A DNA stretch of 64,000 bases from NCBI GenBank assembly GCA_013298765.1, contig JAAFJA010000007.1, positions 1-64,000 on the forward strand, read 5' to 3'. The DNA is from Betaproteobacteria bacterium. GTDB taxonomy: Bacteria; Pseudomonadota; Gammaproteobacteria; Burkholderiales; Casimicrobiaceae. The translations under genes and the position numbers were made by a program. The notes under the pieces were generated by a model, which searched no databases, was not told the origin of the DNA, and saw nothing but the letters and a program-made list of their open reading frames with translations. This document shows positions 4,137 through 56,567 of the stretch, piece by piece; the stretch's first letter is position 1, and every line of letters begins with the position of its first letter.

Positions 4137-5765
4137 TCAAATGGCAATAGCGTTGAAACTCAACCCAAACCGCGCCAAATACTTGCGCAACCGATCCGCG
4201 TCGTTCACTTCGCTTCGCTCTTCGCGCGAGACGTTGTAGAGCTTGCGACCCGCATCCGAGAGCGTGCGGCTTTGTTTGCACACGCGAATTACCGCTTCGA
4301 GTTGCAGGCGATCGAAGAGATCGAGTTTTGCGAGTGCGGCTTCGTCGACATAGCGTTCGAGCTCGACGCTTTGCGCGTTGCTCGTCGATGCGTCTTTCGC
4401 CCAAAGCCATTTGAGCCGCTCGATTTCCGCATCGACCACGGCCTCGGTGATGCGCCCGCCGTCGGCGAGTGTGGCCATGCGAGTCACACTTGCGGATAGA
4501 TCACGAAAATTGCCTCTCCACGCGCCATTTACACCGGACGCGAAGCTCATATAACGCTTTTTCGCTTCTACATTGAATCGAGCCTGTTGCCCGATATCTT
4601 TTGGGCTAAGTGACAATAGGTAATCTACGTTCGGCTCAATGTCTTCGGGTCGCTCGGCAAGGCCGGGCAAGGTGTAACTCCAGAGATTGATCCGCGCGAA
4701 CAAATCCTCTCGAAACTCGCCGCGCGCGACCGCATCGCGCAGATCGAGATTGGTGCCTGCGATCAACTGGAAATCGCTCGCAACTTCTTTGTCTGCACCG
4801 ACTGGATAGAAGCGTTTGTCTTCAATCGCTTTGAGCAGCATCGCTTGTTCATCAAGCCCGAGCGTGCCGATCTCATCGAGAAAGAGCACGCCTTTGTCAG
4901 CGCTGCGAAGCAAGCCCGCGCGATCGGCCATCGCGCCCGTGAACGCGCCCTTTTTGTGACCGAACAAGGTGGACGCGGCGCCGTCGCCCATGAGCGTTGC
5001 GCAATTCACTTCAACGAATTCGCCAGTGACGTTGTGTCGCTCTTTCTTCAATTCGTAAATGCGCTTCGCGAGGAAACTTTTCCCCGCGCCGGTGGGGCCG
5101 GTCAGCAACACTGGCGCACTTGATCGCAGCGCCACGTGTTCAATCTCATCGATCAAGGCGTTGAAGCGTTTGTTCTTCGTTGCGATGCCGCTTTTCAAGT
5201 AGCGCTTCGCATCGTCCGTCGCGATCGCAAAGCGTTTCGCAATCGCGTCATAGCGCGAAAGATCAAGATCGATCAGCGCATAGCTGCCCGGATCGCCTTC
5301 GCGCTGCGGGCGTGGCGGCGCGGTTTGCAGGAGCACACCCGGTAGCACGCGCGCCTCTGCAAGCAAGAACAAACAAATCTGCGCGACGTGCGTGCCCGTC
5401 GTGATGTGAATCCAATAATCCGATTGCTCCGGATCAAGCTTCTGCGCATGCGCCCAATCAAAGAGCGCGCCATACATCTCACCGAAATCCCAAGGATCGC
5501 GCACGGGCAGCGCATGCAAGGTGACGCGCGTATCCGGGCTCACGAGCGCGATGTCTGCCACCACTTGCTCCGCAATCCGCTCATGCCCCGGCGAATGCAA
5601 CAGCTCAATCGCATCAATCGCGACATCTTCGTGCTGCACGATAGAAATGGTCGGCCGCCACTTTTGCCAACGACCACGACCGCCGCCTGCATCAAGCTGC
5701 GAGCCTAGGAAGCCGATGACGGTGGTGGGTTTGGTGGTTGGTTGTGACACTCTTTGCTGCTCCAT
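4137..5765 (-). CDS. rtcR: sigma54-dependent transcriptional activator RtcR (CARF-like N-terminal domain + AAA+ domain + C-terminal HTH)
   Basis: Collinear with E. coli RtcR throughout (WRPT, HITTGTHVAQIC, IDLDLSRY, GPTGAGKSF, GAFTGA, FLDEIG, ATWRGNFRELSASVTRMAT, NDADRLRKYLARFGL). The start was chosen at MEQQRV (5765). An alternative upstream ATG lies at 5798. Confidence 0.9.
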   Translation of the reverse strand: MEQQRVSQPTTKPTTVIGFLGSQLDAGGGRGRWQKWRPTISIVQHEDVAIDAIELLHSPGHERIAEQVVADIALVSPDTRVTLHALPVRDPWDFGEMYGALFDWAHAQKLDPEQSDYWIHITTGTHVAQICLFLLAEARVLPGVLLQTAPPRPQREGDPGSYALIDLDLSRYDAIAKRFAIATDDAKRYLKSGIATKNKRFNALIDEIEHVALRSSAPVLLTGPTGAGKSFLAKRIYELKKERHNVTGEFVEVNCATLMGDGAASTLFGHKKGAFTGAMADRAGLLRSADKGVLFLDEIGTLGLDEQAMLLKAIEDKRFYPVGADKEVASDFQLIAGTNLDLRDAVARGEFREDLFARINLWSYTLPGLAERPEDIEPNVDYLLSLSPKDIGQQARFNVEAKKRYMSFASGVNGAWRGNFRDLSASVTRMATLADGGRITEAVVDAEIERLKWLWAKDASTSNAQSVELERYVDEAALAKLDLFDRLQLEAVIRVCKQSRTLSDAGRKLYNVSREERSEVNDADRLRKYLARFGLSFNAIAI

Positions 5766-5815
5766 GCTCCCTCTAGTGCTGGGTTCCTTGCACCACACCT
5801 CAATCTGTCATCCCC

Positions 5816-5914
5816 GCGGAGGCGGGGACCCAGACCGAGACGGTCGAGAAACTACGATCATTTGATCAACAGCAATCTGCCCGGTCTGGGTTCCCGCCTT
5901 CGCGGGAATGACGA
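5816..5914. repeat. inverted-repeat pair of GC-rich palindromic units (tgtcatccccgcggaggcggggacccagaccg / cggtctgggttcccgccttcgcgggaatgacg)
   Basis: Arms of 32 nt at 5816-5847 and 5882-5914 are reverse complements with 3-4 mismatches. Each arm is itself palindromic (CCCGCG..GCGGG). The pair lies in the rtcR / rtc-operon divergent intergenic region. Confidence 0.75.
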
Positions 5915-6064
5915 CAGCGGGTTAGCTATTTTGCTATTGAACGTGCTTTCAAGCTAGTTGCGCAGTGAATTGACTCACGTGCGGCGCCAGCAAACGTGAG
6001 CAAATCAGAAAAGTAATTAAATAAATCAATGGTTTACGGTTGGCAGCCGCTGCGATACACGATC

Positions 6065-6080
6065 TGGCACGCTCGCTGCA
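6065..6080 (+). promoter_or_regulatory. sigma54 (RpoN) -24/-12 promoter for the RtcR-controlled operon
   Basis: The sequence is cTGGCACgctcgcTGCAa. The GG sits at 6066-6067 and the GC at 6078-6079, giving the canonical 12-nt spacing. It matches TGGCACG-N4-TTGCW apart from a single T-to-C change. It lies about 300 nt upstream of the divergent rtcR and points toward the SPFH-ankyrin-rtcB genes. Confidence 0.75.
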
Positions 6081-6091
6081 ATAAGAAAAGC

Positions 6092-6655
6092 GTCAAACAG
6101 AAAACATGATGCGCTTACAGGTTCTAGGGGTTTGCTCCCCACCGGTGCGCGATGCCTCGAATGGTTCGAGTTGCGTGTTGCGTATGCCGCCGCATGTGGA
6201 CTGCTTGATATGAAGTTCTCTTGGTGACAGCGGCAACGCTGTTGGGTTCGATTCCCTTGAATTTCTCCTTTTGGATAGCTCAATCGGCAGAGCAATCGAC
6301 CACGAATCGATATGTAGCGGGTTCGAATCCCGTTCCAAAACCTGGCCTGAAACGCCATGATGAAACCCGAGCCGCAAGGCTCACCGCCGAATGCAGATCG
6401 GCAACGCGGACAACGAAGCATCGAAACACGAAAGCGAATCGATGCTGCGGTGGAAGCGAAGGCGATTTGTCAGCCCGCGCGCTCTGCGATATGCGAGAGG
6501 CGAGGACGAACGGCACGGCAGCGTTGTTAGTAACGCGTTCGATGCAGTTTGATCGAACGCGAAGCAAGCGACAACACCGTTGCTCAACGTTCAACGCAAG
6601 CGAATCCCGCGAGCGGACTGTAACGGCAACACTCACGAATAAAGAAAGAACAACA
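6092..6655 (+). ncRNA. structured 5' leader / candidate ncRNA region between the sigma54 promoter and the first CDS
   Basis: About 560 nt with no convincing CDS. The overlapping ORF translation is low-complexity and R/T-rich. The region contains the tRNA-like element and several perfect hairpins (GCATCGA..TCGATGC at 6419-6446; CGTTCGAT..ATCGAACG at 6536-6559). Confidence 0.4.
6269..6341 (+). tRNA. tRNA-like cloverleaf, Arg(ACG)-type but atypical; a possible pseudo-tRNA or Y-RNA-like tRNA mimic in the rtc operon leader
   Basis: Manual fold. The acceptor stem TTTTGGA/TCCAAAA has 7 bp. Positions 8-9 are U8 and A9. The D-arm is GCTC-AATCGGCA-GAGC and includes GG. The anticodon stem is ATCGA/TCGAT with loop CCACGAA, so the anticodon is ACG but position 33 is C rather than U. 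The variable loop is ATGTA. The T-arm is GCGGG-TTCGAAT-CCCGT. The discriminator is C and no CCA is encoded. The AT-rich acceptor stem is anomalous for this GC-rich genome. Confidence 0.5.
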
Positions 6656-7795
6656 ATGATGAATCTAAACAAAATCAATGTGCGCAAAACCGAACGTGCA
6701 GTACTTTTGCGCAATGGCGATTTCGAGCGCGTGCTCGCGCCGGGTCAATACTGGTTTCCTACGCTCTTCGACAAGATTGTCGTGGAGCGAAAAGAGGTAG
6801 CACAGCCACTCTACATCGGCGCTGCTGCTGACTACCTGCTCGCAACGCCTACCGATTCGGCAAACGAGCACTTCGTGCGTGTTGAATTGAACGATACGCA
6901 AGCTGGCTTGTTGTACGAAAACGATTCGCTCGTCGAACTTTTGCCGCCTGCGACGCGTCGCTTGTATTGGAAGACTTCGGCAAACGTGCGCGTTGAAACC
7001 GTTGAGCTTTCGGGTGAAGGCGAGCTTGCGAAAGACTTGGTTGCAAAGATCACGCATTCGCAATTGAAGCGTCGCGCGGTTGCTGGTTTGCAAGCGGTGT
7101 TGCAAGTGCAAGTGCCGGAATACAACATCGGCTTGCTTGTGATCGACGGGAAACTTGTTCGCATGCTGGAAGCGGGTTCGTATGCGTTTTGGCGATTTAA
7201 CCGTAGCGTTACGGTGGAGTTCGTCGATTTGCGTGTGCAAGCGCTTGAAGTCACCGGTCAAGAAATCTTGACGCGAGACAAAGTGGCGCTACGACTCAAC
7301 CTGGGCGCAACGTGGCGTTATGCGGACGTGTTGAAAGCGTTCGCGATGACTGCGAAACCGTTGGATAACCTCTATCGCGAATTGCAGTTTGCATTGCGCG
7401 CCGCAGTGGGCACGCAATCGCTCGACGAGTTGCTGGAAAACAAAACGGCACTCAATGAGAAGGTTAAAGTCGCAGTGCGCGAGCGCATGGCGAGCGCAGG
7501 TATCGCGCTTGAGGCAGTGGGTGTGAAAGACATCATCCTGCCTGGCGAGATGAAAGCGATCCTCGCGCAAGTCGTAGAAGCGGAAAAAGTCGCGCAAGCC
7601 AACTTGATCCGTCGCCGCGAAGAAACCGCTGCATCGCGCTCGCTCTTGAACACAGCGAAAGTGATGGAAGACAACCCAGTGGCGCTACGCTTGAAAGAGC
7701 TAGAAACCCTGGAACGCGTCGCGGAACGCATCGACAAAATCTCCGTGTTTGGAGGTTTGGACGGTGTGTTGAACGCGTTGGCGAAAGTGAAGTAG
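6656..7795 (+). CDS. SPFH/band-7 (stomatin/flotillin-like) domain protein
   Basis: About 379 aa starting at the ATGATG after aaagaaagaacaaca. The SPFH domain is indicated by the pattern LYENDSL..RRLYW... and long coiled-coil/EA-rich helices (ILAQVVEAEKVAQANLIRRREE). No N-terminal TM segment is evident. Confidence 0.75.
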   Translation: MMNLNKINVRKTERAVLLRNGDFERVLAPGQYWFPTLFDKIVVERKEVAQPLYIGAAADYLLATPTDSANEHFVRVELNDTQAGLLYENDSLVELLPPATRRLYWKTSANVRVETVELSGEGELAKDLVAKITHSQLKRRAVAGLQAVLQVQVPEYNIGLLVIDGKLVRMLEAGSYAFWRFNRSVTVEFVDLRVQALEVTGQEILTRDKVALRLNLGATWRYADVLKAFAMTAKPLDNLYRELQFALRAAVGTQSLDELLENKTALNEKVKVAVRERMASAGIALEAVGVKDIILPGEMKAILAQVVEAEKVAQANLIRRREETAASRSLLNTAKVMEDNPVALRLKELETLERVAERIDKISVFGGLDGVLNALAKVK

Positions 7796-7802
7796 CCTCG
7801 TC

Positions 7803-7930
7803 AACGAGTGATTCCCTCCCCTTCAAGGGGAGGGTCAGGGTGGGGATAGTTTTCTCTGCCTCCTATCGACCGAAAACCATTCCCCTCCTAGCCTCCCCGT
7901 TGAAGGGTGAGGAACCCGCAAAGCATCGGA
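7803..7930. repeat. REP-like GC-rich palindromic element (two units)
   Basis: It contains ccctccccttcaaggggagggtcagggtgggg and cctccccgttgaagggtgagg, which belong to the same family as 1255-1340 and 40288-40332. Confidence 0.7.
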
Positions 7931-7937
7931 TCAGCGC

Positions 7938-8474
7938 ATGAACGACTACGACTACATCATCAACAGCTTACAAAACGAGTCGATCACCGAATGGGAAGAG
8001 TTGGCGTTGATTGTTGACGATTTCCCCGGTGGGGTCGATTGGTGGTTGGGGCGACGTTGGATCATCAATGCAATTGATTTGTCCCCGTTGAGCGCAATCG
8101 AATGGATGCTCACGAAAGGGATAAACCTTCGATTCCGTGACGGCGAAGGCTATACGCCGTTACATTCAGCGGTAGAGCGTAGATTCGATGATCGCGTTCA
8201 AGTGATAAGTGCATTAGTGGGAGCGGGTGCAAATGTCGACGAGATTGGTCGTGAAACGACTACCCCTCTCTTATTCGCGCTCGAAATGAAGCGAAACGAG
8301 TGCGCACTTGCACTTTTGCAACTCGGCGCAAACGTCCACGTTCAAACACTGATCGATTGGTATGAATCCCCGCTCGAGTACGCGCAGCGCACGAAACATG
8401 AGCTGTTGCCTCAACTTGAAAATGCCGCTGCGCGAAAAACTCGCGAATTCGGGGCCAAAGTGAAAACAGCATGA
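7938..8474 (+). CDS. ankyrin-repeat protein
   Basis: 178 aa with three ANK-like units (GYTPLHSAVERRFDDRVQVISALVGAGANVDE; TTPLLFALEMKRNECALALLQLGANVHV). GC is about 50%, below the window background. Its stop overlaps the rtcB start (ATGA). Confidence 0.8.
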   Translation: MNDYDYIINSLQNESITEWEELALIVDDFPGGVDWWLGRRWIINAIDLSPLSAIEWMLTKGINLRFRDGEGYTPLHSAVERRFDDRVQVISALVGAGANVDEIGRETTTPLLFALEMKRNECALALLQLGANVHVQTLIDWYESPLEYAQRTKHELLPQLENAAARKTREFGAKVKTA

Positions 8475-9688
8475 AAAACTACAACGAAATCCAAACCGAA
8501 AACGTCCCGATCAAAATGTGGACGAAGGGCGTGCCTGTTGAGGACGACGCTCAGAAGCAATTGCTCAACGCTTCGAAGTTGCCGATTGTGTTTAAGCACA
8601 TCGCTGCGATGCCGGACGTGCATTTGGGGATTGGTGCGACTGTGGGCTCGGTGATTCCTACGCTGCGGGCGATCATTCCGGCGGCCGTCGGCGTGGACAT
8701 CGGTTGCGGGATGATTGCTTGCAAGACGACGTTAACCGCGAGCGACTTGCCGGATAACTTGTTGCCGCTTCGTAGCGCGATTGAGCGCTCGGTGCCGCAC
8801 GGGCGCGTGGCGATGCGCGGGAAGCGAGACACCGGCGCGTGGGACAGCCCGCCCGAGGAAGCGGATGCTGCGTGGGCGAAACTTGCATCGGGTTTTGATG
8901 AGATCACCGAGGTTGAGCCGCGCTTGAAAAACACGAACAACCGAAAGCATTTGGGAACGCTTGGAACGGGTAACCATTTCATCGAAATTTGTCTCGATGA
9001 GAAGCAGGCGGTTTGGATCATGCTGCATTCGGGTTCGCGCGGCGTGGGTAACGCGATCGGAACGCTCTACATTGAGCGCGCTCGCGAAGAAGCGATCAAG
9101 CACAACATGAATTTGCCTGACAAAGATTTGGCGTATTTCGAAGAAGGCTCGAAGTATTTCGGCGACTACGTGCGCGGCGTGAGCTGGGCGCAGCAATTCG
9201 CGAAACTAAATCGCGAAGTGATGATGCAGCGCGTGATTGCGGCGATGAAAACCGTGATCGCGAAGCCGTTTGAGACGCATCTGGAAGCGGTGAACTGTCA
9301 TCACAACTATGTGCAACGCGAAACGCATTTCGGCGAAGCCGTGTTCGTGACGCGCAAGGGCGCGGTGAGCGCAAAGGCGGGTGAACTCGGCATCATCCCG
9401 GGTTCGATGGGCGCGAAGAGCTACATCGTGCGCGGAAAAGGCAATCCGGAAAGCTTCATGTCATGCAGCCACGGCGCAGGCCGCACGATGAGTCGCACGC
9501 AAGCGAAAAAGCGCTTCACGCTCGCCGATCACATCAAAGCGACCGAAGGCGTGGAATGCCGAAAAGACGAGGATGTGATCGACGAGATTCCGATGGCGTA
9601 CAAAGACATCGACGCGGTGATGGAAGCGCAGCGGGATTTGGTGGATGTGGTTTATACGTTGAAGCAGGTGGTTTGTGTGAAGGGGTGA
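8471..9688 (+). CDS. rtcB: RNA-splicing ligase RtcB (3'-phosphate/5'-OH RNA ligase)
   Basis: 405 aa. The N-terminus ...PIKMWTKGVPVEDDAQKQLLNASKLPIVFKHIAAMPDVHLGIGATVGSVIPT is near-identical to the E. coli RtcB N-terminus. The metal-ligand and catalytic His regions (GTGNHFIE, SCSHGAGR) are conserved. Confidence 0.95.
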   Translation: MKNYNEIQTENVPIKMWTKGVPVEDDAQKQLLNASKLPIVFKHIAAMPDVHLGIGATVGSVIPTLRAIIPAAVGVDIGCGMIACKTTLTASDLPDNLLPLRSAIERSVPHGRVAMRGKRDTGAWDSPPEEADAAWAKLASGFDEITEVEPRLKNTNNRKHLGTLGTGNHFIEICLDEKQAVWIMLHSGSRGVGNAIGTLYIERAREEAIKHNMNLPDKDLAYFEEGSKYFGDYVRGVSWAQQFAKLNREVMMQRVIAAMKTVIAKPFETHLEAVNCHHNYVQRETHFGEAVFVTRKGAVSAKAGELGIIPGSMGAKSYIVRGKGNPESFMSCSHGAGRTMSRTQAKKRFTLADHIKATEGVECRKDEDVIDEIPMAYKDIDAVMEAQRDLVDVVYTLKQVVCVKG

Positions 9689-9691
9689 GGG

Positions 9692-10417
9692 ATGCAAGTA
9701 GATATCAATGCGCGCTATACGGACTTAGTGGTTCGCTCGGAGCGGACGTGGCAGGAAGCATTGCTATTGTTTGACCGACTGAATCGAAATAGAGAAGTAC
9801 TGAGCAGAATCGAGGAAGATGAACTAAGGAGTAATCCACCTCCTATTCATTTCATGCGAAAGCGAAAAAGCGAGTGGCGCGACGAAGCTATCGCGGCAAA
9901 CGCGGAGAGGCTACTTGAGATTGCATCGCGAACCGCATTGGTTTTCGGGCACTCCGCGTTGGACGCAGCACTAAACGATTTTCTGTGTTTTTGTGCGACC
10001 CTCGACGGCAGCGCTTTCGATTTTCATGTTCAGGAGCGAAAATTGCCCGCGAAGGAATTTCTTTCTAAGAGTGGTTCAGAACTCAGAGCAGCGCTTATTG
10101 ACCGATTCCTGAAAGAATCCTCAAGAGAACCAATTTTGAAAAGAATTTCGATACTTTTGTCGATTTGCAAGCCAACGGCTCAGCATTTCAGCGATGTTGT
10201 CTACCCAGAGTTTGTCTACGAGCAATCGCGAGTGGAGCAAATCGACCATTTGCGGCATCAGGTGATTCACCGAGGCGCGATACCAAGCATTAACTACGAT
10301 GACACGCTTTATCTTTACATGATCACACGCTTGGTCTATCGCGTAGTTACCTCGCTGCGCCCGGTCACATTCGATTTAGATCTTGCGATAAGAACCTCCA
10401 CTAACCTGAAGAGCTAG
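9692..10417 (+). CDS. hypothetical protein, low-GC, occupying the position where RtcA is normally found; possible HEPN-like Rx4H motif
   Basis: 241-aa ORF. Its start lies 4 nt after the rtcB stop, with no intervening intergenic region. GC is about 42-48%. No recognisable RtcA motifs are present. The C-terminal region has LRHQVIHRG, an R-x4-H pattern. It is predicted alpha-helical. Confidence 0.55.
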   Translation: MQVDINARYTDLVVRSERTWQEALLLFDRLNRNREVLSRIEEDELRSNPPPIHFMRKRKSEWRDEAIAANAERLLEIASRTALVFGHSALDAALNDFLCFCATLDGSAFDFHVQERKLPAKEFLSKSGSELRAALIDRFLKESSREPILKRISILLSICKPTAQHFSDVVYPEFVYEQSRVEQIDHLRHQVIHRGAIPSINYDDTLYLYMITRLVYRVVTSLRPVTFDLDLAIRTSTNLKS

Positions 10418-10582
10418 AGCATCGGAATTTCGTTTCGGTCGTAGCTAGGATGAAGCGCAACGGAATCGAGGCATTTCATTCGCAACCCCTCGATTGCGCT
10501 TCGTTTCATCGAGGCTGCGAATCGTGGATCGCTTCGCGATGCGTTACGGGAACCCGGATGCGAGCATCCGGGCTACGTCCTT

Positions 10583-10693
10583 CGTTTTCGGTAGGGTGCG
10601 ATCCTATCGCACCTTGTGCGCATACGCGCGAAGCGCACTACTTCAATCCGCGTTGGTCGGTATCAAACTGGGTGCGATAGGATCGCACCCTAC
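10583..10693. mobile_element. MITE-like element of about 115 bp (copy 1) with terminal hairpin/inverted repeats TAGGGTGCGATCCTATCGCACC ... GGTGCGATAGGATCGCACCCTA
   Basis: Terminal 23-nt inverted repeats lie at 10583-10606 and 10669-10693. The internal core (cttcaatccgcgttggtcggtatcaaa) is about 80% identical to the reverse complement of the core of the second copy at 55157-55255. Confidence 0.65.
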
Positions 10694-10712
10694 GATTCGT
10701 CACAAAATTGCA

Positions 10713-11063
10713 TCACGGTTTCCCGTACGCGCGCTCGACCTTGGCGATTCGTAATTCGAAGTGTTCATACCAACGCTCTTGCCCATACTGCTGCGCGACT
10801 AGGTGTTCGGCGTTGGCTTTCCATTTGACGATTGCGGCTTCGTCGCGCCAATACGAGACGGTGATGCCGAAGCCGTCGGCGCCGCGTGCGGATTCGATGC
10901 CGAGGTAGCCGTCTTGTTGGGCGGCAAGTTCGACCATGCGGTCTGCCATGTCGCCGTAGCCGTCGGACGCCCCGTGTCCGTCGTTGTCCGCACCGGGGGT
11001 TCGAAAGCTGGAGAAGATCACGGCGAAGTAGGGCGGTTGAGGAAGCGTTGCGAAGTTCGTCAT
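10713..11063 (-). CDS. antibiotic-biosynthesis-monooxygenase (ABM)-like / stress-responsive alpha-beta barrel protein
   Basis: 116-aa ORF with the motif SYWRDEAAIVKWKANAEHLVAQQYGQERWYEHFELRIAKV, typical of the ABM/Dabb fold. Confidence 0.55.
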   Translation of the reverse strand: MTNFATLPQPPYFAVIFSSFRTPGADNDGHGASDGYGDMADRMVELAAQQDGYLGIESARGADGFGITVSYWRDEAAIVKWKANAEHLVAQQYGQERWYEHFELRIAKVERAYGKP

Positions 11064-11177
11064 TCTTGTATCGTGAGGCGTTCAAGGCTCGGCTCGAAAT
11101 CGTAGCGCAACCGAAGCATTTGGCAGATGCGCTTTCAGCATCGATGTTGTTGAGCGAGTTATCCAATAATTGCTGTT

Positions 11178-11951
11178 ATGCGCATTCTCATCACCGGACT
11201 CAACGGCTCGTTAGCGCCGCATCTTGCGCGGGTTGCACGTGCGCACGCGCACGAGGTGATCGGTTGGGATCGCGGTGCGGTTTCTCCGGATGATGCAGCG
11301 GCGGGCGATACGTTCCTTCACAACACGCAACCCGATGCCATTGCGCATTTGGGCTTTGGGAGTGAGGATTGGGCCGCGCGGCTTGCGAGTTGGGCAGCGG
11401 CGAATGATCGAGCGTTTGTGTTCACGAGTACGGCAATGGTGTTCGATCATCTACCCGATGGCCCGCATCGAGTGAACGATGAGCGCACGGCGAAAGACGA
11501 TTACGGTCGCTACAAAATTCGTTGCGAAGACGCGATCCGCGCGGCGAATCCTGCTGCGTGCATCGCGCGGATTGGTTGGCAGATTGATGTTGACGACGAC
11601 GGCCACGCGCGGGGTAACAATATGCTTGCGGCGCTCGATCAACAGCAAGCCAGTGATGGACGGATTCGCGCGAGCACTGCGTGGCGGCCCGCGTGTTCGT
11701 TGATGAGCGATACGGCGTTGGCTTTGCTTCAGTTGATCGAGCAGCGCGGCGAAGGTGTCGTGCATCTCGATAGCAATGAAGACTCAGCGCTCAATTTTTA
11801 TGAGTTGGTTGCGTCACTCAAAGTGCGGTTCGCTAGAGCGTCGTGGATCATCGAGCCGCATGCGGAGTATGTTCACGATCAGCGGCTGATTGCTTCCGAG
11901 TGCAGCGCGGTGCGTATCGCGCCGCTTTCAGCACGGTTCGGTAGCCAATAA
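11178..11951 (+). CDS. NAD(P)-dependent sugar-nucleotide epimerase/reductase (short-chain dehydrogenase/reductase (SDR) family; RmlD-substrate-binding-like)
   Basis: 257 aa. It has an N-terminal Rossmann motif (MRILITGLNGSLAPHL) and the Y-x3-K pattern (DDYGRYKIRCE). Confidence 0.65.
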   Translation: MRILITGLNGSLAPHLARVARAHAHEVIGWDRGAVSPDDAAAGDTFLHNTQPDAIAHLGFGSEDWAARLASWAAANDRAFVFTSTAMVFDHLPDGPHRVNDERTAKDDYGRYKIRCEDAIRAANPAACIARIGWQIDVDDDGHARGNNMLAALDQQQASDGRIRASTAWRPACSLMSDTALALLQLIEQRGEGVVHLDSNEDSALNFYELVASLKVRFARASWIIEPHAEYVHDQRLIASECSAVRIAPLSARFGSQ

Positions 11952-13295: not shown

Positions 13296-14038
13296 CGCGC
13301 AGCCTCCAGCGCAACCAAACGCACGCCTTCGAGCGCTAAGGTGTCGATCACCGTAGCATCCGCGCGCAAATGCGGCAGCAGTCGATACGCGCTGCCGCCA
13401 GTGAGTACCACTTTGGGCTCACGGAAATGCCCACGCTCATGCAACACCTTCGCCAATCGAGCATGACTCGCTTGAATTGCGCCCACCATGGCATCGATGG
13501 CGCCAGTCGCAAGTGCATCTCGTGTGTTTCTTGGCTGACTGGTCCAATCTCCAGCGTCCACCGATAGCGCGGCGGTGTTCCCAGCGAGTCCACCTAACAT
13601 CGCGTGATACCCGGCGACGATCGCGCCCCCCAAGAATCGGCCAGTCTCGTCGAGCTGATCGATGGTGAGGGCGGTTCCGGCGCTGACCACGAGGCAGGGC
13701 CCGAGTTTTCGCTGCCAGGACGCGACGAGCGCAGCCCAGCGATCTGTGCCAAGACGCGCTGGCTCGTCATAGCTATTCACCACGCCGCCGCAGCTCGCTT
13801 TGGATTCAATCCATTCGACCGTGTGGCCGAGCGAAGCGAGTTGCTCTTCGATCTTTCGGCGGGTGACCGCATTAGCGACGTGGCTCCCCGCAATTCGAGT
13901 TGGCTTGAGCTTCTCGACGCCGGCGCGCTCAAGAAATTGATCGAGTTCGGCGATAAACATCGCGCCGCGACTCACGATCATGTCATGTTCAAAGGCGGCC
14001 CATTTGAGGCGTGTGTTGCCGATATCGAGTGCGAGCAT
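13292..14038 (-). CDS. coaX: type III pantothenate kinase
   Basis: 248 aa. It has the MLALDIGNTRLKWA N-terminal motif and the LVVSAGTALTID ASKHA-fold motifs. It overlaps the downstream SPOR gene by 4 nt. Confidence 0.9.
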   Translation of the reverse strand: MLALDIGNTRLKWAAFEHDMIVSRGAMFIAELDQFLERAGVEKLKPTRIAGSHVANAVTRRKIEEQLASLGHTVEWIESKASCGGVVNSYDEPARLGTDRWAALVASWQRKLGPCLVVSAGTALTIDQLDETGRFLGGAIVAGYHAMLGGLAGNTAALSVDAGDWTSQPRNTRDALATGAIDAMVGAIQASHARLAKVLHERGHFREPKVVLTGGSAYRLLPHLRADATVIDTLALEGVRLVALEAAR

Positions 14039-22190: not shown

Positions 22191-22214
22191 ACAACGTTAC
22201 GCCCTGTGATCATT

Positions 22215-22361
22215 GCCACAGATGCACACAGATTCAAACCAGTAACAAACGGATCACGCGCGCTGCACTCACGTCGAACTTTCGATGCGGGACTGCTGAT
22301 GCGAGTGACATGGCTTGTACCCATCTGTTTAATCTGTGTGCATCTGTGTAAATCTGTGGCA
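22215..22361. repeat. element of about 150 bp bounded by 21-nt inverted repeats (tgccacagatgcacacagatt / aatctgtgtgcatctgtg-ta-aatctgtggca); MITE-like or large regulatory palindrome
   Basis: The arms at 22215-22235 and 22331-22361 are exact reverse complements, and the right arm has a partial internal duplication. The element sits in the intergenic region upstream of the gamma-carbonic-anhydrase gene. Confidence 0.6.
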
Positions 22362-22375
22362 AATAATTTTCAAAC

Positions 22376-43119: not shown

Positions 43120-43410
43120 TACCACGCGCATGCGCGATGCGGATTGCGCTACGACGTTATGAATCCTTTACATGTCTTGCAGTTGTCCGCCGCCCGACAA
43201 TCGCTGCTCCCTTCGTTCATTCTTTGGATTTAATTGTTTGAGACGATTCTGACCAAGCGGTTTGAGCGCCTACTATACTTCGCAACAGTGCCTTCTGCGT
43301 CCGTCGAGTTTCTTACGATATTGCGCGAATTGTTTTGAACGGCAGCGCTGTATCGTTTGAACGCTGATGCTGGCGGCGCGAGCGATTAGCATTTTTCGGG
43401 GGGTATACCA

Positions 43411-45537
43411 ATGAAACGCGTCTTTTATCGTCTGCACATCATGCGGACGCTCATGACCCTTGCCGTAAGCGCGGGTCTCGGATTGATATCAAGTATTGTC
43501 GGCGCTCAAACCGTCATTAACGCAACGCTCGGGAGCGCGCCGCCTACGGGCTCCAACTACACCGCGAGCAGTGGGACACAAACGGGTCGTCTGCTGCGCA
43601 ACGGAACAGCCTCCACCTGCGCAGCGCCGAAGACGAATCCAGGTTTGAACGACACCGACCCGGGTCGGGCGTATCACGCCTACACGTTCACGAACACAGC
43701 AAGTAGCGCGGTCTGCTTTACGGTGACTTTGACGCAGCCGGGTAACACGCTGTTTGTATTGGCATACGGTAACGCGGGTCTCGTTACTTCGGCGCCCGAT
43801 ACGAACTACCTTGCAGACGCCGGATCCTCTACCGCAACCGCAACCTTCAGTTTCAATGTGCCAGCGGGCGAGAGCTTTACGCTGGCGGTGCACGAAGTCG
43901 CTGCGGGAGGAGGGGGAGGGACGGCTTACACACTCTCCGTGAACTTGCCATCCGCCGATCTCGCGATTACTAAAACCGATGGCGTTACCACCGCCGTGCC
44001 GGGCGGCTCGGTCACCTATACAGTCACAGCTAGCAACGCTGGACCCGGAAGTGCCAACGGTGCGACGGTCGCTGATACCTTTCCGGCTGCGCTCACCTGT
44101 ACCTGGACTTGCGCAGGCGCGGGCGGTGGAACTTGCACAGCATCGGGCTCCGGAAACATCAACGACACCGTAAATCTCCCGACTGGCGGCTCTGTAAGCT
44201 ACACCGCATCTTGTGCCATCTCTGCCTCAGCAACGGGAACGCTCAGCAACACCGCCACGGTGTCGCCGCCCGCTGGCGTTGTTGATCCGAACCCTGCGAA
44301 TAACAGCGCGACGGACACCGACACGCTAACGCCAAGCGCCGACCTCGCAGTCACGAAGACCGATGGCGTTACAACTGTGACAGCCGGCACCTCTACGACG
44401 TACACGATTACGGCCAGCAACGCCGGGCCTAGCAATGCTCTCGGAGCCACTGTGGCCGATACGTTTCCGGCGTCGCTCACCTGTACGTGGACTTGCGTAG
44501 GTGTTGGCGGCGGCTCGTGCACTGCATCGGGCTCCGGAAACATCAACAACAACGTGAATTTACCCGCCGGGGGTTCGGTAACCTACACCGCAACCTGCGG
44601 CATCGCTGCAACGGCAACTGGATCGTTAAGCAATACCGCCACCGTGACGGCGCCCGGTAGCGTCGTTGATCCGAACCCTGCGAATAACAGCGCAACGGAT
44701 ACCGACACGATCATCGCGGCGACCTACACCATTGGCGGCACAATTTCCGGACTCAGTGCGAGCGGTTTGGTGCTCGCGGCAGGCACGTCGCCCAATCAAA
44801 CGGCGTCTCCCGCTTCTGGTGCGAGCAGCTTCGCATTCCCGACTGCGGCATCCGGAAGCTATGCGGTCACTGTGCAAACGCAGCCAAGCGGATTGAACTG
44901 CAGTGTTGCAAACGGTAGCGGCACACTTACGGCCAACGTAACCAACGTAGCGGTGACTTGTTCGGCGATCACATTCACGGTGACCGGCATCGCGAATCCT
45001 TCGGCAGGCGGAACGGTGAATTGCGTTTCTCCGGTGAACTTTGGTGGCAGCAGCTCCTGCAATGCGAGCGCGAACGCCGGGTACGTGTTTTCGAGTTTCA
45101 GCGGCGGGTGCGTGGGAAGCACTTGCGCAATTAGCAATATTCAGGCGAATCAATCAGTCACCGCAAATTTCTTGCTAACTCAAACGATCACGTTTGGCAC
45201 TCAAACGCCGCGCGCACTGATCGCCGGGGGTTCGTTCCTGCTGAACCCTGTTGCAACTGCGAGCAGCGCTCTGCCGCTCGCCTACTCATCGCTTACGCCC
45301 TCTGTGTGTACCGTTTCTGGAACGACCGTGACCATGTTTACAGCTGGCACCTGCACCGTCAGGGCCGATCAAGCGGGTAATGCGCAGTTCGCGTCCGCTT
45401 TCGCTACGCAATCCTTCGTCATTGGCGCAGCCGCGGCCGCAACCCAGGTGCCTTCACTGCCGGTTGGGTGGGTCATCGCCCTAGCGCTATTGCTCATCGC
45501 GGCGGGTGTGATCGTTCAACGTGCGAAACGAACGTAG
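43411..45537 (+). CDS. DUF11-repeat surface protein with an IPTL-CTERM-type C-terminal sorting signal
   Basis: 708 aa with a signal peptide. There are three repeats of about 125 aa (LAITKTDGVT...TASNAGP...DPNPANNSATDTDT), which are DUF11/CARDB-like. The C-terminus VPSLPVGWVIALALLLIAAGVIVQRAKRT matches the IPTL-CTERM pattern: the motif, a TM helix, then a basic tail. Confidence 0.8.
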   Translation: MKRVFYRLHIMRTLMTLAVSAGLGLISSIVGAQTVINATLGSAPPTGSNYTASSGTQTGRLLRNGTASTCAAPKTNPGLNDTDPGRAYHAYTFTNTASSAVCFTVTLTQPGNTLFVLAYGNAGLVTSAPDTNYLADAGSSTATATFSFNVPAGESFTLAVHEVAAGGGGGTAYTLSVNLPSADLAITKTDGVTTAVPGGSVTYTVTASNAGPGSANGATVADTFPAALTCTWTCAGAGGGTCTASGSGNINDTVNLPTGGSVSYTASCAISASATGTLSNTATVSPPAGVVDPNPANNSATDTDTLTPSADLAVTKTDGVTTVTAGTSTTYTITASNAGPSNALGATVADTFPASLTCTWTCVGVGGGSCTASGSGNINNNVNLPAGGSVTYTATCGIAATATGSLSNTATVTAPGSVVDPNPANNSATDTDTIIAATYTIGGTISGLSASGLVLAAGTSPNQTASPASGASSFAFPTAASGSYAVTVQTQPSGLNCSVANGSGTLTANVTNVAVTCSAITFTVTGIANPSAGGTVNCVSPVNFGGSSSCNASANAGYVFSSFSGGCVGSTCAISNIQANQSVTANFLLTQTITFGTQTPRALIAGGSFLLNPVATASSALPLAYSSLTPSVCTVSGTTVTMFTAGTCTVRADQAGNAQFASAFATQSFVIGAAAAATQVPSLPVGWVIALALLLIAAGVIVQRAKRT
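43957..44710 (+). repeat. tandem direct DNA repeats of about 380 bp, two full copies, encoding the DUF11 domains
   Basis: The protein repeats are about 80% identical. The DNA copies are 43957-44340 and 44341-44710. Confidence 0.7.
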
Positions 45538-52830: not shown

Positions 52831-55157
52831 AAGATTCGCTTAGCTCGCTCACACTTGTCGCCGTGGATTGCGCGTACCCCGCGCTTGCTGCGAAGGCGCT
52901 CCAGCGATCTGCTGCGCTCTTGCCAAGTGCACGCGTATTGCTCTTGTCAGATTGCGGCGAAGTGTTTCCGGACGTTGAGACCGTTGCCATTGCGCCAATT
53001 AAATCGCGCTCGGCGTACTCGCGCTTCATGCTTAAAGAGCTCGCGGATTACATCGATACCGATTTCGCGCTGGTTGTGCAGTGGGACGGTTTTGTGATCC
53101 ACGACAACGCGTTTGCCAAAGAGTTTTGGAACTACGATTACATCGGCGCAAAGTGGCCCCACAAGGAAGGCGATTTCCGCGTCGGCAACGGCGGCTTCTC
53201 ACTGCGCTCGAAGCGCTTGCTAGAGGCGCTTCGCGATCACGCTATTGAGTTTCTGGAAGACGAGAACGAAGACGAAAGTATCTGTATTCGTTATCGGGAT
53301 CAACTGGAAACCCAGTACGGAATCGTTTTTGCTGATGAACGTGTTGCGGATCGATTTGCGTTCGATGTTTCACGCCCGATTGGCCGCACGCTTGGCTTTC
53401 ATGGCGTGTTTAATTTCTGGCAGGCGCTTTCAGCCGATGAGTTAGTGGAGTTCGCGCGCACTGCTCCGGAGGCAATTGCGGAAGGGCTCGGGTTCGGTTC
53501 GCTCACTAAAAATCTAGTCGATCTGAAGCGAAATGAGGTGGCGAGCGAATTCGTTACTCGTCGGCTTGCTTCGGTGCCTGGTGATCCGGCCGCGCTCGCG
53601 CTTCGTGCTCGTCTCGCCGATGCGCTTCGTGTTAATGCCTCATCTGCGTCTACACAGCCCGCTCCAAGCGATGTGGGGGTCAAGCCGCCGGCTTCACGAA
53701 ACGATCCGTGCCCGTGTGGCAGCGGGAAGCGCTACAAGGAATGTCATGGCGCGATTGCAGCGGCTACAACCGCTCAGAGCGTGAAAATTGATGAAGAAAG
53801 CGTGATTGCCGAGGCGCTCCGGCTTCATGAGCAAGGCCAGATTCAAGCAGCGGTTGAACGGTACAGCCGCGTGCTCCAGCAATCGCCTGAAAATCCGACG
53901 GCCCTGCACTTTATCGGGCTTGCGCAGTACCAGGCAGGTCAGCCCAGTGATGCGATGGAAGCGATGTGGCGCTCATTGCTTCTCGCACCAAACGAACCCG
54001 AGTTCCTTAGTAACTTCAGCGCTGCGGCGTGGAGCGCGGGTCGCTACGATGAAGGCAAGTGGGCTGCCGAGCGCGCAATCGAGTTGCAAGCTGATCATCC
54101 TGGCGCCCTCAATAACTTGGGCTTTAACTTGCGCGCGCTCAATCGGATTGACGAATCCATCACAGTCTTTGATCGTGCGCTTGAGCTACACCCGCAGTTC
54201 GATTACGCGCGCTGGAACCGCATGTTTTCGTTGCTCGCAAAGGGTAACTACTCGCAAGGATTTGCTGATAACGAACTGCGCTTGCAGTTTCCACAAACGC
54301 AGCCCACCGGGAGAATTCCCGCAAACACGTCGCTGTGGCGTGGCGAGGCTGCAACAGGCAAGTCGATCGTGATTCTGTGCGAGCAAGGGCTGGGCGACAC
54401 GTTCATGTTTGCGCGGTTTGTTCCGCTCGTCATTGAGCGTGGGTTGCGCGTAACACTCGTGGTTCAGCGCTCTCAAGTGGCGCTGATGCAGCAGTCGTTT
54501 CCGCATGCGCGCGTGCTCTCCGTGGGTGAACACGAGGCGCTCAGCTTTGATTTTTGGACGCCGTTGTGGTCGCTCACCTCCGCGCTCAACATTACGCTTG
54601 AGAATCTCCCCACGCCTGAGCGTTTTTTGCAAACTAACGTGGCTGATGTCGCTCGTTGGGAAGCGCGTCTGTCGCGAGTCTCCGCGACAAATGCTGGAAG
54701 GCCGCTTCGAATCGGTTTGGTTTGGCAAGGTCAAATGGCTGGTGCCGATAGCCAAATGGCGGAGCGTTCAATCGCGCCGCGTCTGGTGAAGCGTTTCGTG
54801 GAATCGCACCCTGAACATGTGTGGGTTTCTCTTCAGCATGGCGCTGCACCGCTCGGCGCGAGTAACCTGAACGATTGGACGAGTGAGACAGTTGAATTCA
54901 CGCAGATGGCGGCGTTAATCGACGCGCTCGACATCGTGCTCACGATTGACACGGGTGCCGCACATCTCGCCGCTGCACTCGGCGCGAAAACCTGGGTCAT
55001 GCTGCGCCATGCAGGCGATTGGCGCTACGGCACCGAAGCCGCGAATGGCGAGCTCTGCCCGTGGTCACCGACCATGCGGCTATTCAGACAGGACGAATCG
55101 CGGCGTTGGGAGCCTGTGTTCGCACATATCGCGGACGCGCTTCGTGAAGCGGGGTAG
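52827..55157 (+). CDS. multidomain protein: N-terminal unknown domain + SEC-C zinc motif + TPR repeats + C-terminal glycosyltransferase family 9 (heptosyltransferase-like) domain
   Basis: 776 aa. The SEC-C motif is DPCPCGSGKRYKECHG, with TPR-like helical repeats after it. The C-terminal region (GLGDTFMFARFVPLV...TGAAHLAAALG) is GT9-like. Confidence 0.7.
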   Translation: MKDSLSSLTLVAVDCAYPALAAKALQRSAALLPSARVLLLSDCGEVFPDVETVAIAPIKSRSAYSRFMLKELADYIDTDFALVVQWDGFVIHDNAFAKEFWNYDYIGAKWPHKEGDFRVGNGGFSLRSKRLLEALRDHAIEFLEDENEDESICIRYRDQLETQYGIVFADERVADRFAFDVSRPIGRTLGFHGVFNFWQALSADELVEFARTAPEAIAEGLGFGSLTKNLVDLKRNEVASEFVTRRLASVPGDPAALALRARLADALRVNASSASTQPAPSDVGVKPPASRNDPCPCGSGKRYKECHGAIAAATTAQSVKIDEESVIAEALRLHEQGQIQAAVERYSRVLQQSPENPTALHFIGLAQYQAGQPSDAMEAMWRSLLLAPNEPEFLSNFSAAAWSAGRYDEGKWAAERAIELQADHPGALNNLGFNLRALNRIDESITVFDRALELHPQFDYARWNRMFSLLAKGNYSQGFADNELRLQFPQTQPTGRIPANTSLWRGEAATGKSIVILCEQGLGDTFMFARFVPLVIERGLRVTLVVQRSQVALMQQSFPHARVLSVGEHEALSFDFWTPLWSLTSALNITLENLPTPERFLQTNVADVARWEARLSRVSATNAGRPLRIGLVWQGQMAGADSQMAERSIAPRLVKRFVESHPEHVWVSLQHGAAPLGASNLNDWTSETVEFTQMAALIDALDIVLTIDTGAAHLAAALGAKTWVMLRHAGDWRYGTEAANGELCPWSPTMRLFRQDESRRWEPVFAHIADALREAG

Positions 55158-55255
55158 GGTGCGATCCTATCGCACCCAAATTGATACTAGCCAACGTAGA
55201 TTGAGGAAATGCGGTCGCGCGGATCGTCACGAGGTGCGATGGGATCGCACCCTAC
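55157..55255. mobile_element. MITE-like element (copy 2, inverted relative to copy 1)
   Basis: It has the termini TAGGGTGCGATCCTATCGCACCC ... GGTGCGATGGGATCGCACCCTAC. The internal core is the reverse complement of the 10607-10668 core, at about 80% identity. Confidence 0.65.
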
Positions 55256-56375: not shown

Positions 56376-56567
56376 GTTGTTCTTCTGTGTAAGGGTTGAT
56401 TTGCCTTAATTGTAGGCGGCTCGTGCGTCGCTGTAGGCGCGCACTTGGGCGCGCTTGCGGCATGGGCGGTATGTCAGCGCCGGGAAGCGCGGCCAAGTCC
56501 GCGCCTACAATCCGATCGTCTAGCGCCGAATGCGCGTTTGTCATGGGGCATTCGTCCTGCGAAGCAA

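Follow-up and report, generated by a model that had tools for sequence, protein, structure and literature searches.

The 64,000 nt stretch of DNA analysed here (the window) contains an rtc locus in which the activator gene rtcR is transcribed leftwards, divergently from the rtc operon, and an inverted repeat has these two transcription units as its neighbours. The rtcR ORF matches the Pfam families RtcR (3e-76) and Sigma54_activat (3e-49), and the nearest relatives of its product are found in uncultured Betaproteobacteria and in a Casimicrobium sp. MAG. Beyond the sigma-54 promoter of the operon lie, in order, a tRNA-like gene (6269-6342), an SPFH/Band-7 gene, an ankyrin-repeat gene, rtcB and a 241-aa ORF that has no Pfam match. 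The organization of rtcR and of the divergent control region is as follows.

4137-5765, minus strand: rtcR, encoding a CARF-type RtcR domain and a sigma-54 activator AAA+ domain (Pfam)
5766-5805, minus strand: leader of about 40 nt that separates the rtcR ATG from the dimer and contains a GGGAG Shine-Dalgarno sequence
5806-5837, plus strand: left REP unit, with tag TGTC, stem ATCCCCGC / GCGGGGAC, loop GGAG and tail CCA, then GACCG
5838-5881, no strand: 44 nt spacer between the left and right REP units
5882-5913, minus strand: right REP unit, with tag CGTC, stem ATTCCCGC / GCGGGAAC, loop GAAG and tail CCA, then GACCG
5925-5957, plus strand: likely RtcR enhancer boxes GCTAT (5925-5929 and 5933-5937), a degenerate ACGTGCT (5941-5947) and GCTAG (5953-5957), at offsets as in other rtcR loci
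6024-6036, plus strand: IHF-like site AATCAATGGTTTA (consensus WATCAANNNNTTR), about 40 nt upstream of the -24 element
6065-6080, plus strand: sigma-54 -24/-12 promoter of the rtc operon, TGGCACGCTCGCTGCA

We note that RtcA is missing from the rtc operon, both in the window (6221-10417) and in the related loci L001, L003, L005 and L006. Besides rtcB, the content of the operon varies among close relatives. The window operon has the SPFH/Band-7 and ankyrin-repeat proteins and the 241-aa unknown, those of L001 and L005 have a zf_Tbcl protein of 143-144 aa and a 238-aa unknown, and that of L003 is without the Band-7 and tRNA-like genes and has unknowns of 60, 269 and 442 aa.

A preliminary description of this DNA had reported an imperfect inverted repeat of two 32 nt units with three to four mismatches at 5816-5914. 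The repeat is real but its boundaries are shifted, since it begins at 5806, 10 nt further leftwards, and ends at 5913. A repeat finder returns arms of 31 nt (5807-5837 and 5882-5912) that are complementary at 28 of 31 positions (90%) and 44 nt apart, and the 32 nt version of the arms (5806-5837 and 5882-5913) has four mismatches. Its placement relative to rtcR and the -24 element was correctly described: counted from the -24 element, the repeat extends from about -259 to -152, and its left end is some 40 nt upstream of the rtcR ATG, from which the -24/-12 promoter is 300 nt away. Written as a pattern the unit is YGTCATYCCCGC-N4-GCGGGRA. When the arm is searched for with up to 3 mismatches, the 64 kb window contains exactly two copies, making one dimer, and 100 dinucleotide-preserving shuffles contain none.

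Each arm was also said to be palindromic in itself, and both indeed form their own hairpin, TCCCCGC-GGAG-GCGGGGA on the left and, on the minus strand, TTCCCGC-GAAG-GCGGGAA on the right, with the left stem consisting of 7 Watson-Crick pairs and one A.C. A compensatory change from C:G to T:A accounts for two of the three differences between the left and right 31 nt arms, and the two units form a heterodimer in which the tags are on the outside (head-head, or HH). The dimer as a whole folds as one long hairpin, both as DNA (z = -6.7 relative to shuffles) and as RNA of the rtcR strand (-84 kcal/mol, z = -5.5). When the mismatches between the arms are scored by strand as G.U or C.A, the plus strand has two G.U and one C.A, and the minus strand the reverse.

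This anatomy closely resembles that of the CGTC-1 repeats described by Di Nocera, De Gregorio and Rocco (2013, BMC Genomics 14:522; PMC3733652). CGTC-1 copies carry an unpaired terminal CGTC tag, which in many of them is TGTC or CCTC, their stem is 8 bp with A and T at the first and second positions, they have 4 nt loops and unpaired tails fitting CCA, and they are mostly HH dimers, defined by tags on the outside, with spacers mostly of 20-100 bp (PMC3733652). In the window, TGTC is present at 5806-5809 and CGTC on the minus strand at 5913-5910, the loops GGAG and GAAG are each of 4 nt, CCA follows the stem in both arms, and the tags are outside with a spacer of 44 nt, within the published range. 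The dimer is also like CGTC-1 in being a heterodimer, as described for the betaproteobacterium Cupriavidus taiwanensis, and in the presence of GTAG-type REPs in the same genome. The stems begin with AT as published, but contain 7 rather than 8 Watson-Crick pairs, the first A facing a C; all eight stem pairs form in an arm of L005 that ends in GGGAAT. We assign the units to CGTC-1 because the tag, the AT start of the stem, the loop, the tail and the HH layout match the published description.

Repeats of this kind were thus already described in 2013, and earlier as dRS3, and what is seen here is another copy, in an unsurveyed lineage and an unusual place. The members of CGTC-1 include Neisseria dRS3 and Rickettsia RPE-6, and no transposase could be linked to CGTC repeats in the 2013 survey (PMC3733652); the CGTC work is cited by Quentin et al. 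2018 and by the RepRanger paper (2025), which add nothing to it. A literal literature search with six variants of an 18 nt core gave a single paper, on Neisseria gonorrhoeae. The present host differs from those in the 2013 survey, which did not cover Casimicrobium-like Burkholderiales. REPs usually follow genes and have unidirectional or convergent ORFs on either side (PMC3733652), and most CGTC-1 members are downstream of ORFs, whereas the window dimer lies between divergent genes and within a sigma-54 control region, a minority case for REPs.

Comparison with related genomes provides a context for this location. Dimers are present upstream of rtcR in L001, L003, L004, L005 and L207, in which RtcR is 83-97% identical, and are absent from L006 (RtcR 75%), from some 70-80 metagenome rtcR loci (62-68%) and from E. 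coli. Alignment with L006 indicates that the window has roughly 150 nt extra, corresponding to the dimer and the 40 nt leader, and these together are a lineage-specific insertion between what is likely the real upstream activating sequence (UAS) and the rtcR ATG. When L003 and L005 are compared with the window, identity is 84-97% in the arms, 48-68% in the spacer and 48-62% in the adjoining intergenic DNA, and the spacer of the orthologous rtc dimers diverges at the neutral rate. In the right arm of L003 the T:A pair is replaced by the C:G form, with both sides of the stem changed. Judging from these comparisons, something preserves the hairpins, and with arms that are intact from 97% down to 83% RtcR identity a local function could have been acquired.

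Dimers that are not associated with rtcR are also present. Locus L064, from the same Casimicrobium MAG as L005, has a dimer between the end of an xdhB-like ORF and an xdhC-like ORF in which both 31 nt arms are identical to the window arms and the spacer is different and longer. Four further non-rtc dimers are present in the 56 kb of the relatives' rtc loci, at 13795/13869 in L001, 5529/5613 and 16704/16780 in L003 and 883/967 in L005, and all eight dimers of close relatives are arranged HH. The window arms are thus identical to those of the dimer at the xdh-like locus but have one and two differences from the rtc dimer of that same MAG, which points to a family-wide cause rather than to locus-specific selection. 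Such a cause could be a constraint acting on every copy, or homogenisation between copies.

The same comparisons bear on how the dimers spread. The 31 nt terminal inverted repeats, a size near 108 bp and the occurrence of GTAG-type REPIN-like dimers elsewhere in the window are features expected of a MITE or REPIN, that is, a non-autonomous transposon whose unit of about 108 bp is mobilised through its terminal inverted repeats, for example by a RAYT. Such an origin is nonetheless highly improbable. Spacers of dimers at different loci are no more similar than shuffles and vary in length (34-52 nt in the relatives and more widely elsewhere), and there is no target-site duplication or flanking direct repeat in either the window or L064, so the dimers do not look like MITEs that have been copied whole. 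Short GC-rich hairpins, inverted pairs, intergenic locations, multiple copies and folding into a long hairpin are all shared with GTAG REPs and REPINs such as the E. coli BIMEs and Pseudomonas REPINs, but the tag is CGTC or TGTC and not the RAYT-associated GTAG, the spacer is not conserved, and no transposase is known for, or tied to, the CGTC class (PMC3733652).

Among the other repeats in the window, GTAG-tagged inverted dimers are present at 10591-10693, 55154-55255 and 56432-56509, with the sequences GTAGGGTGCGATCCTATCGCACC (two dimers, with 23 nt arms and spacers of 56-57 nt) and TGTAGGCGCGCACTTGGGCGCGC. The stretch following the rtc operon (10417-11178) has a dimer of this GTAG type in the window, and in the same part of the locus L003 (5529-5634) and L005 (883-988) carry a CGTC-1 dimer in the gap beside an epimerase gene. 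Inverted repeats of unassigned kind are found at 22212-22362 and 43258-43513, one of them (TTGCCACAGATGCACACAGATTCAAAC) with arms of 26-27 nt about 90 nt apart and the other (CGGTTTGAGCGCCTACTATACTT) with 23 nt arms separated by 210 nt.

CGTC-1 units are also widely dispersed in other genomes. When the 26 nt core GTCATYCCCGCGRARGCGGGRAMCCA is scanned against reference genomes, taking one per species, it is found in at least 120 stretches from many phyla. The matches listed include Alpha-, Beta- and Gammaproteobacteria, Dehalococcoidia, Gemmatimonadota, Pirellulales, Zixibacteria and others, with Sphingomonas, Devosia, Luteimonas, Lysobacterales, Coxiellaceae, Massilia, Gemmatimonadales and Hydrogenedentota among their record titles, and several of the foreign genomes among them have more than one core stretch. 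These stretches contain 199 units. Convergent pairs, spaced 37-128 nt from start to start, account for 110 of them, and the window pair, measured in the same way, is spaced 84 nt. The tag is CGTC in 150 units and TGTC in 38, the first tag base having been left free in the search pattern; CCA was fixed in that pattern, and tail statistics are therefore biased. GAAA and GAAG dominate the loops. The stem pair that differs between the window arms is C:G in 92 of the 199 foreign units, T:A in 98 and not Watson-Crick in 9 (Fisher p = 7e-45), and the two window arms are the two common alleles of CGTC-1 units.

Stop-free stretches of at least 150 codons enclose 145 of the 199 foreign units, but this is uninformative because GC-rich DNA has long spurious frames in all six frames. 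The titles of the matches listed (L007-L126), which contain exact 26 nt cores, also include Atribacteria and Desulfatibacillaceae, and the phyla with CGTC-1 cores exceed the five listed for CGTC repeats in 2013 (PMC3733652). Some of the carriers are MAGs, in which binning errors are possible, and closed Dehalococcoidia chromosomes are also included. The wider phylum range of these transposase-less repeats sharpens, without answering, the old question of how they spread.

The position of the dimer upstream of a sigma-54 promoter raises the question of whether it acts as an enhancer. The preliminary description had proposed that it is a UAS for RtcR, but other motifs are found at the enhancer position. 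Common to about 70 rtcR loci (L127-L206) and E. coli (L208) are periodic CTAG/GATA boxes beside the rtcR ATG, together with an IHF-like ATCAAnnnnTT. CTAGC is present in 43 of 69 loci in a 70 nt segment whose end is 90 nt upstream of the -24 element, and in these 69 loci the positions of CTAG cluster between -140 and -101 from the -24 element; ATCAAnnnnT, which fits the IHF consensus, occurs 47 times at -45 to -36. A three-box enhancer pattern matched 8 of 73 sequences with a shuffle maximum of 10, the pattern being badly spaced, and positional k-mer counts were used instead. In the window, boxes are located at -132 (GCTAT, 5933-5937) and -112 (GCTAG, 5953-5957) and ATCAA at -40. In L003 and L005 all three boxes are clean. 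The CTAG/GATA boxes and the IHF-like site constitute a candidate RtcR enhancer consensus, and the RtcR binding role in the window most likely belongs to the boxes at 5925-5957. A UAS and an IHF site of the E. coli rtc system have been used experimentally (PMC9650030). For mapping the RtcR enhancer in this organism, 5925-5957 and 6024-6036 are thus the regions to look at, and not the palindrome.

It is exceedingly improbable that the dimer is itself a UAS, or an auxiliary one, with RtcR dimers or hexamers binding the arms and reaching the sigma-54 holoenzyme by DNA looping. As in UASs of enhancer-binding proteins, it has dyad symmetry and lies upstream of a sigma-54 promoter; it also adjoins the activator gene and is retained in the five related rtc loci. 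However, orthologous promoters do not share it at a constant spacing from the -24/-12 element. In L006 and the 70-80 metagenome loci from which it is absent, the intergenic region is much shorter, a mere 110-140 nt or so separating the -24/-12 element from the rtcR ATG, and the rtc locus of E. coli K-12 is equally compact, its intergenic region being 188 nt long and free of REPs. Nor is the arm sequence specific to the regulon: identical arms are present at the xdh-like locus, and none of the 120 stretches listed has an rtcR orthologue beside the core, as tblastn matches there are confined to the AAA+ cores of other activators, at 37-38% identity. There is no CTAG or GATA box in the arms, and the dimer lies beyond and outside the region of conserved boxes, which with the IHF-like site fill the role at the same offsets as elsewhere. 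We reject the enhancer reading because the dimer is neither conserved among nor specific to rtcR loci, and the boxes are missing from its arms.

The inverted repeat thus very probably consists of two CGTC-1-type REP units that form a head-head heterodimer, inserted in this lineage, and is not an RtcR site. This agrees with the alternative offered in the preliminary description, that a REP-type element incidentally occupies the control region, and it is the combination of anatomy and dispersal that identifies the element as a CGTC-1 HH dimer. In the common ancestor of a small group of Casimicrobium-like Burkholderiales, a dimer very probably became located between the start codon of rtcR and the compact enhancer-IHF-sigma-54 region that other rtcR loci also have, and has been passed on vertically since. 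The arms may then have been kept intact either by selection on the hairpins or by homogenisation with other genomic copies, with the spacer free to drift.

Where the dimer lies relative to the rtcR promoter can be judged from the compact loci. ATTCT is present in 35 and TTCTA in 39 of 69 rtcR loci, and in the compact loci the third box forms TAGAAT, a good -10 hexamer, on the rtcR strand. TAGAAT overlaps the boxes, and on this sequence evidence the rtcR promoter probably overlaps the enhancer boxes. The frequent occurrence of this -10-like TAGAAT as the third box also suggests autoregulation. In the window, the approximately 40 nt between the dimer and the rtcR ATG, which include the GGGAG ribosome binding site, are too short for a new promoter and leader. 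From this geometry, a short gap and a promoter over the boxes, the dimer is most likely in the rtcR 5' leader. The whole element, or its proximal arm at least, would then be transcribed as part of a lengthened leader, as one long hairpin or two short ones, and could influence the stability, processing (by cutting of the long duplex) or translation of rtcR mRNA, although its effect could also be nil.

Scans for a consensus sigma-70 promoter and for terminators between 5700 and 6400 found nothing. An intrinsic terminator was considered for the dimer and rejected; there is no terminator-like site in 5700-6400 and no run of T residues after either arm. With a relaxed threshold Rfam gives microRNA-precursor matches to the dimer at 33.8 bits, relative to a gathering threshold of 100, and we regard these as generic long-hairpin matches.

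Co-option of the REP insertion as a selected cis-regulator of rtcR, for example as a leader hairpin that sets the level of RtcR through RNase III, 5'-end protection or occlusion of translation, is conceivable but unlikely. The arms are intact where the spacer and flanks decay, the predicted minus-strand leader fold is very stable, and with about 40 nt to the ATG at least the proximal arm must be in the promoter or the transcript. Arm conservation is, however, equally explained by whatever keeps the family uniform across genomes, and the window arms, identical to those of the L064 dimer at the xdh-like locus, differ at one and two positions from the L005 rtc dimer of the same MAG, which points to family-wide homogenisation. 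Improbable to a somewhat greater degree is the specific case in which the RNA-repair regulon captured a selfish CGTC-type REP dimer and put it to use, with the rtcR-leader hairpin setting RtcR level by way of RNase III or 5'-end protection; if true, capture would explain the presence of intact arms at one site amid surrounding decay. The locus is a clean case in nature of a REP dimer within a tight divergent control region, with insertion-free relatives as controls, and could be used to test whether such insertions alter the expression of a neighbouring regulator.

The Neisseria dRS3 repeats are targets for phage integration, and this precedent and the very stable DNA hairpin could suggest that the dimer acts at the DNA level through some other factor, as a site for gyrase or a nucleoid protein, as a cruciform insulating the divergent promoters, or as a dRS3-like recombination target. 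Gyrase targeting is among the roles of REPs discussed in the literature (PMC3733652). We consider a role of this type very improbable here, as the sequence shows nothing specific to it and no integrated element is adjacent to the dimer.

We also note the complete tRNA-like gene at 6269-6342 on the plus strand, which is the first element downstream of the rtc sigma-54 promoter and scores 57.9 bits with the Rfam tRNA model. Counterparts are present in L001 (9406-9481), L207 (1494-1566; RtcR 96% identical to that of the window), L005 (6090-6162) and L006 (9586-9658). The acceptor stem, UUUUGGA/UCCAAAA, is unusual, and position 33 of the window copy is a C. The body of the gene is conserved in the close relatives but the anticodon differs, being Arg-ACG in the window and L001, Lys-TTT in L207, Thr-TGT in L005 and Asn-GTT in L006. 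RtcR is reported to be a sensor of cleaved tRNA fragments (PMC7790460), and a tRNA mimic with a swapping anticodon in a repair operon may therefore act as a bait for anticodon nucleases, or as a decoy.

In rtc loci that are less closely related, a Leu, Met, Arg-CCG, Ser or Ile tRNA is found at a similar distance upstream of rtcR. Dense arrays of 10-19 tRNA genes lie directly downstream of rtcR in L127 (5312-6303), L152 (5236-7453) and L184 (5202-6814), and arrays are also present in L129, L132, L136 and L144; there is no such array downstream of rtcR in the window. The leader that runs from the sigma-54 promoter to the tRNA-like gene (6092-6268) has no Rfam family match and is conserved in L001, L005, L006 and L207. 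It includes a second T-arm-like sequence, GGGTTCGATTCCC, at 6244-6256, and may contain a second, degenerate tRNA-like or Y-RNA-like module.
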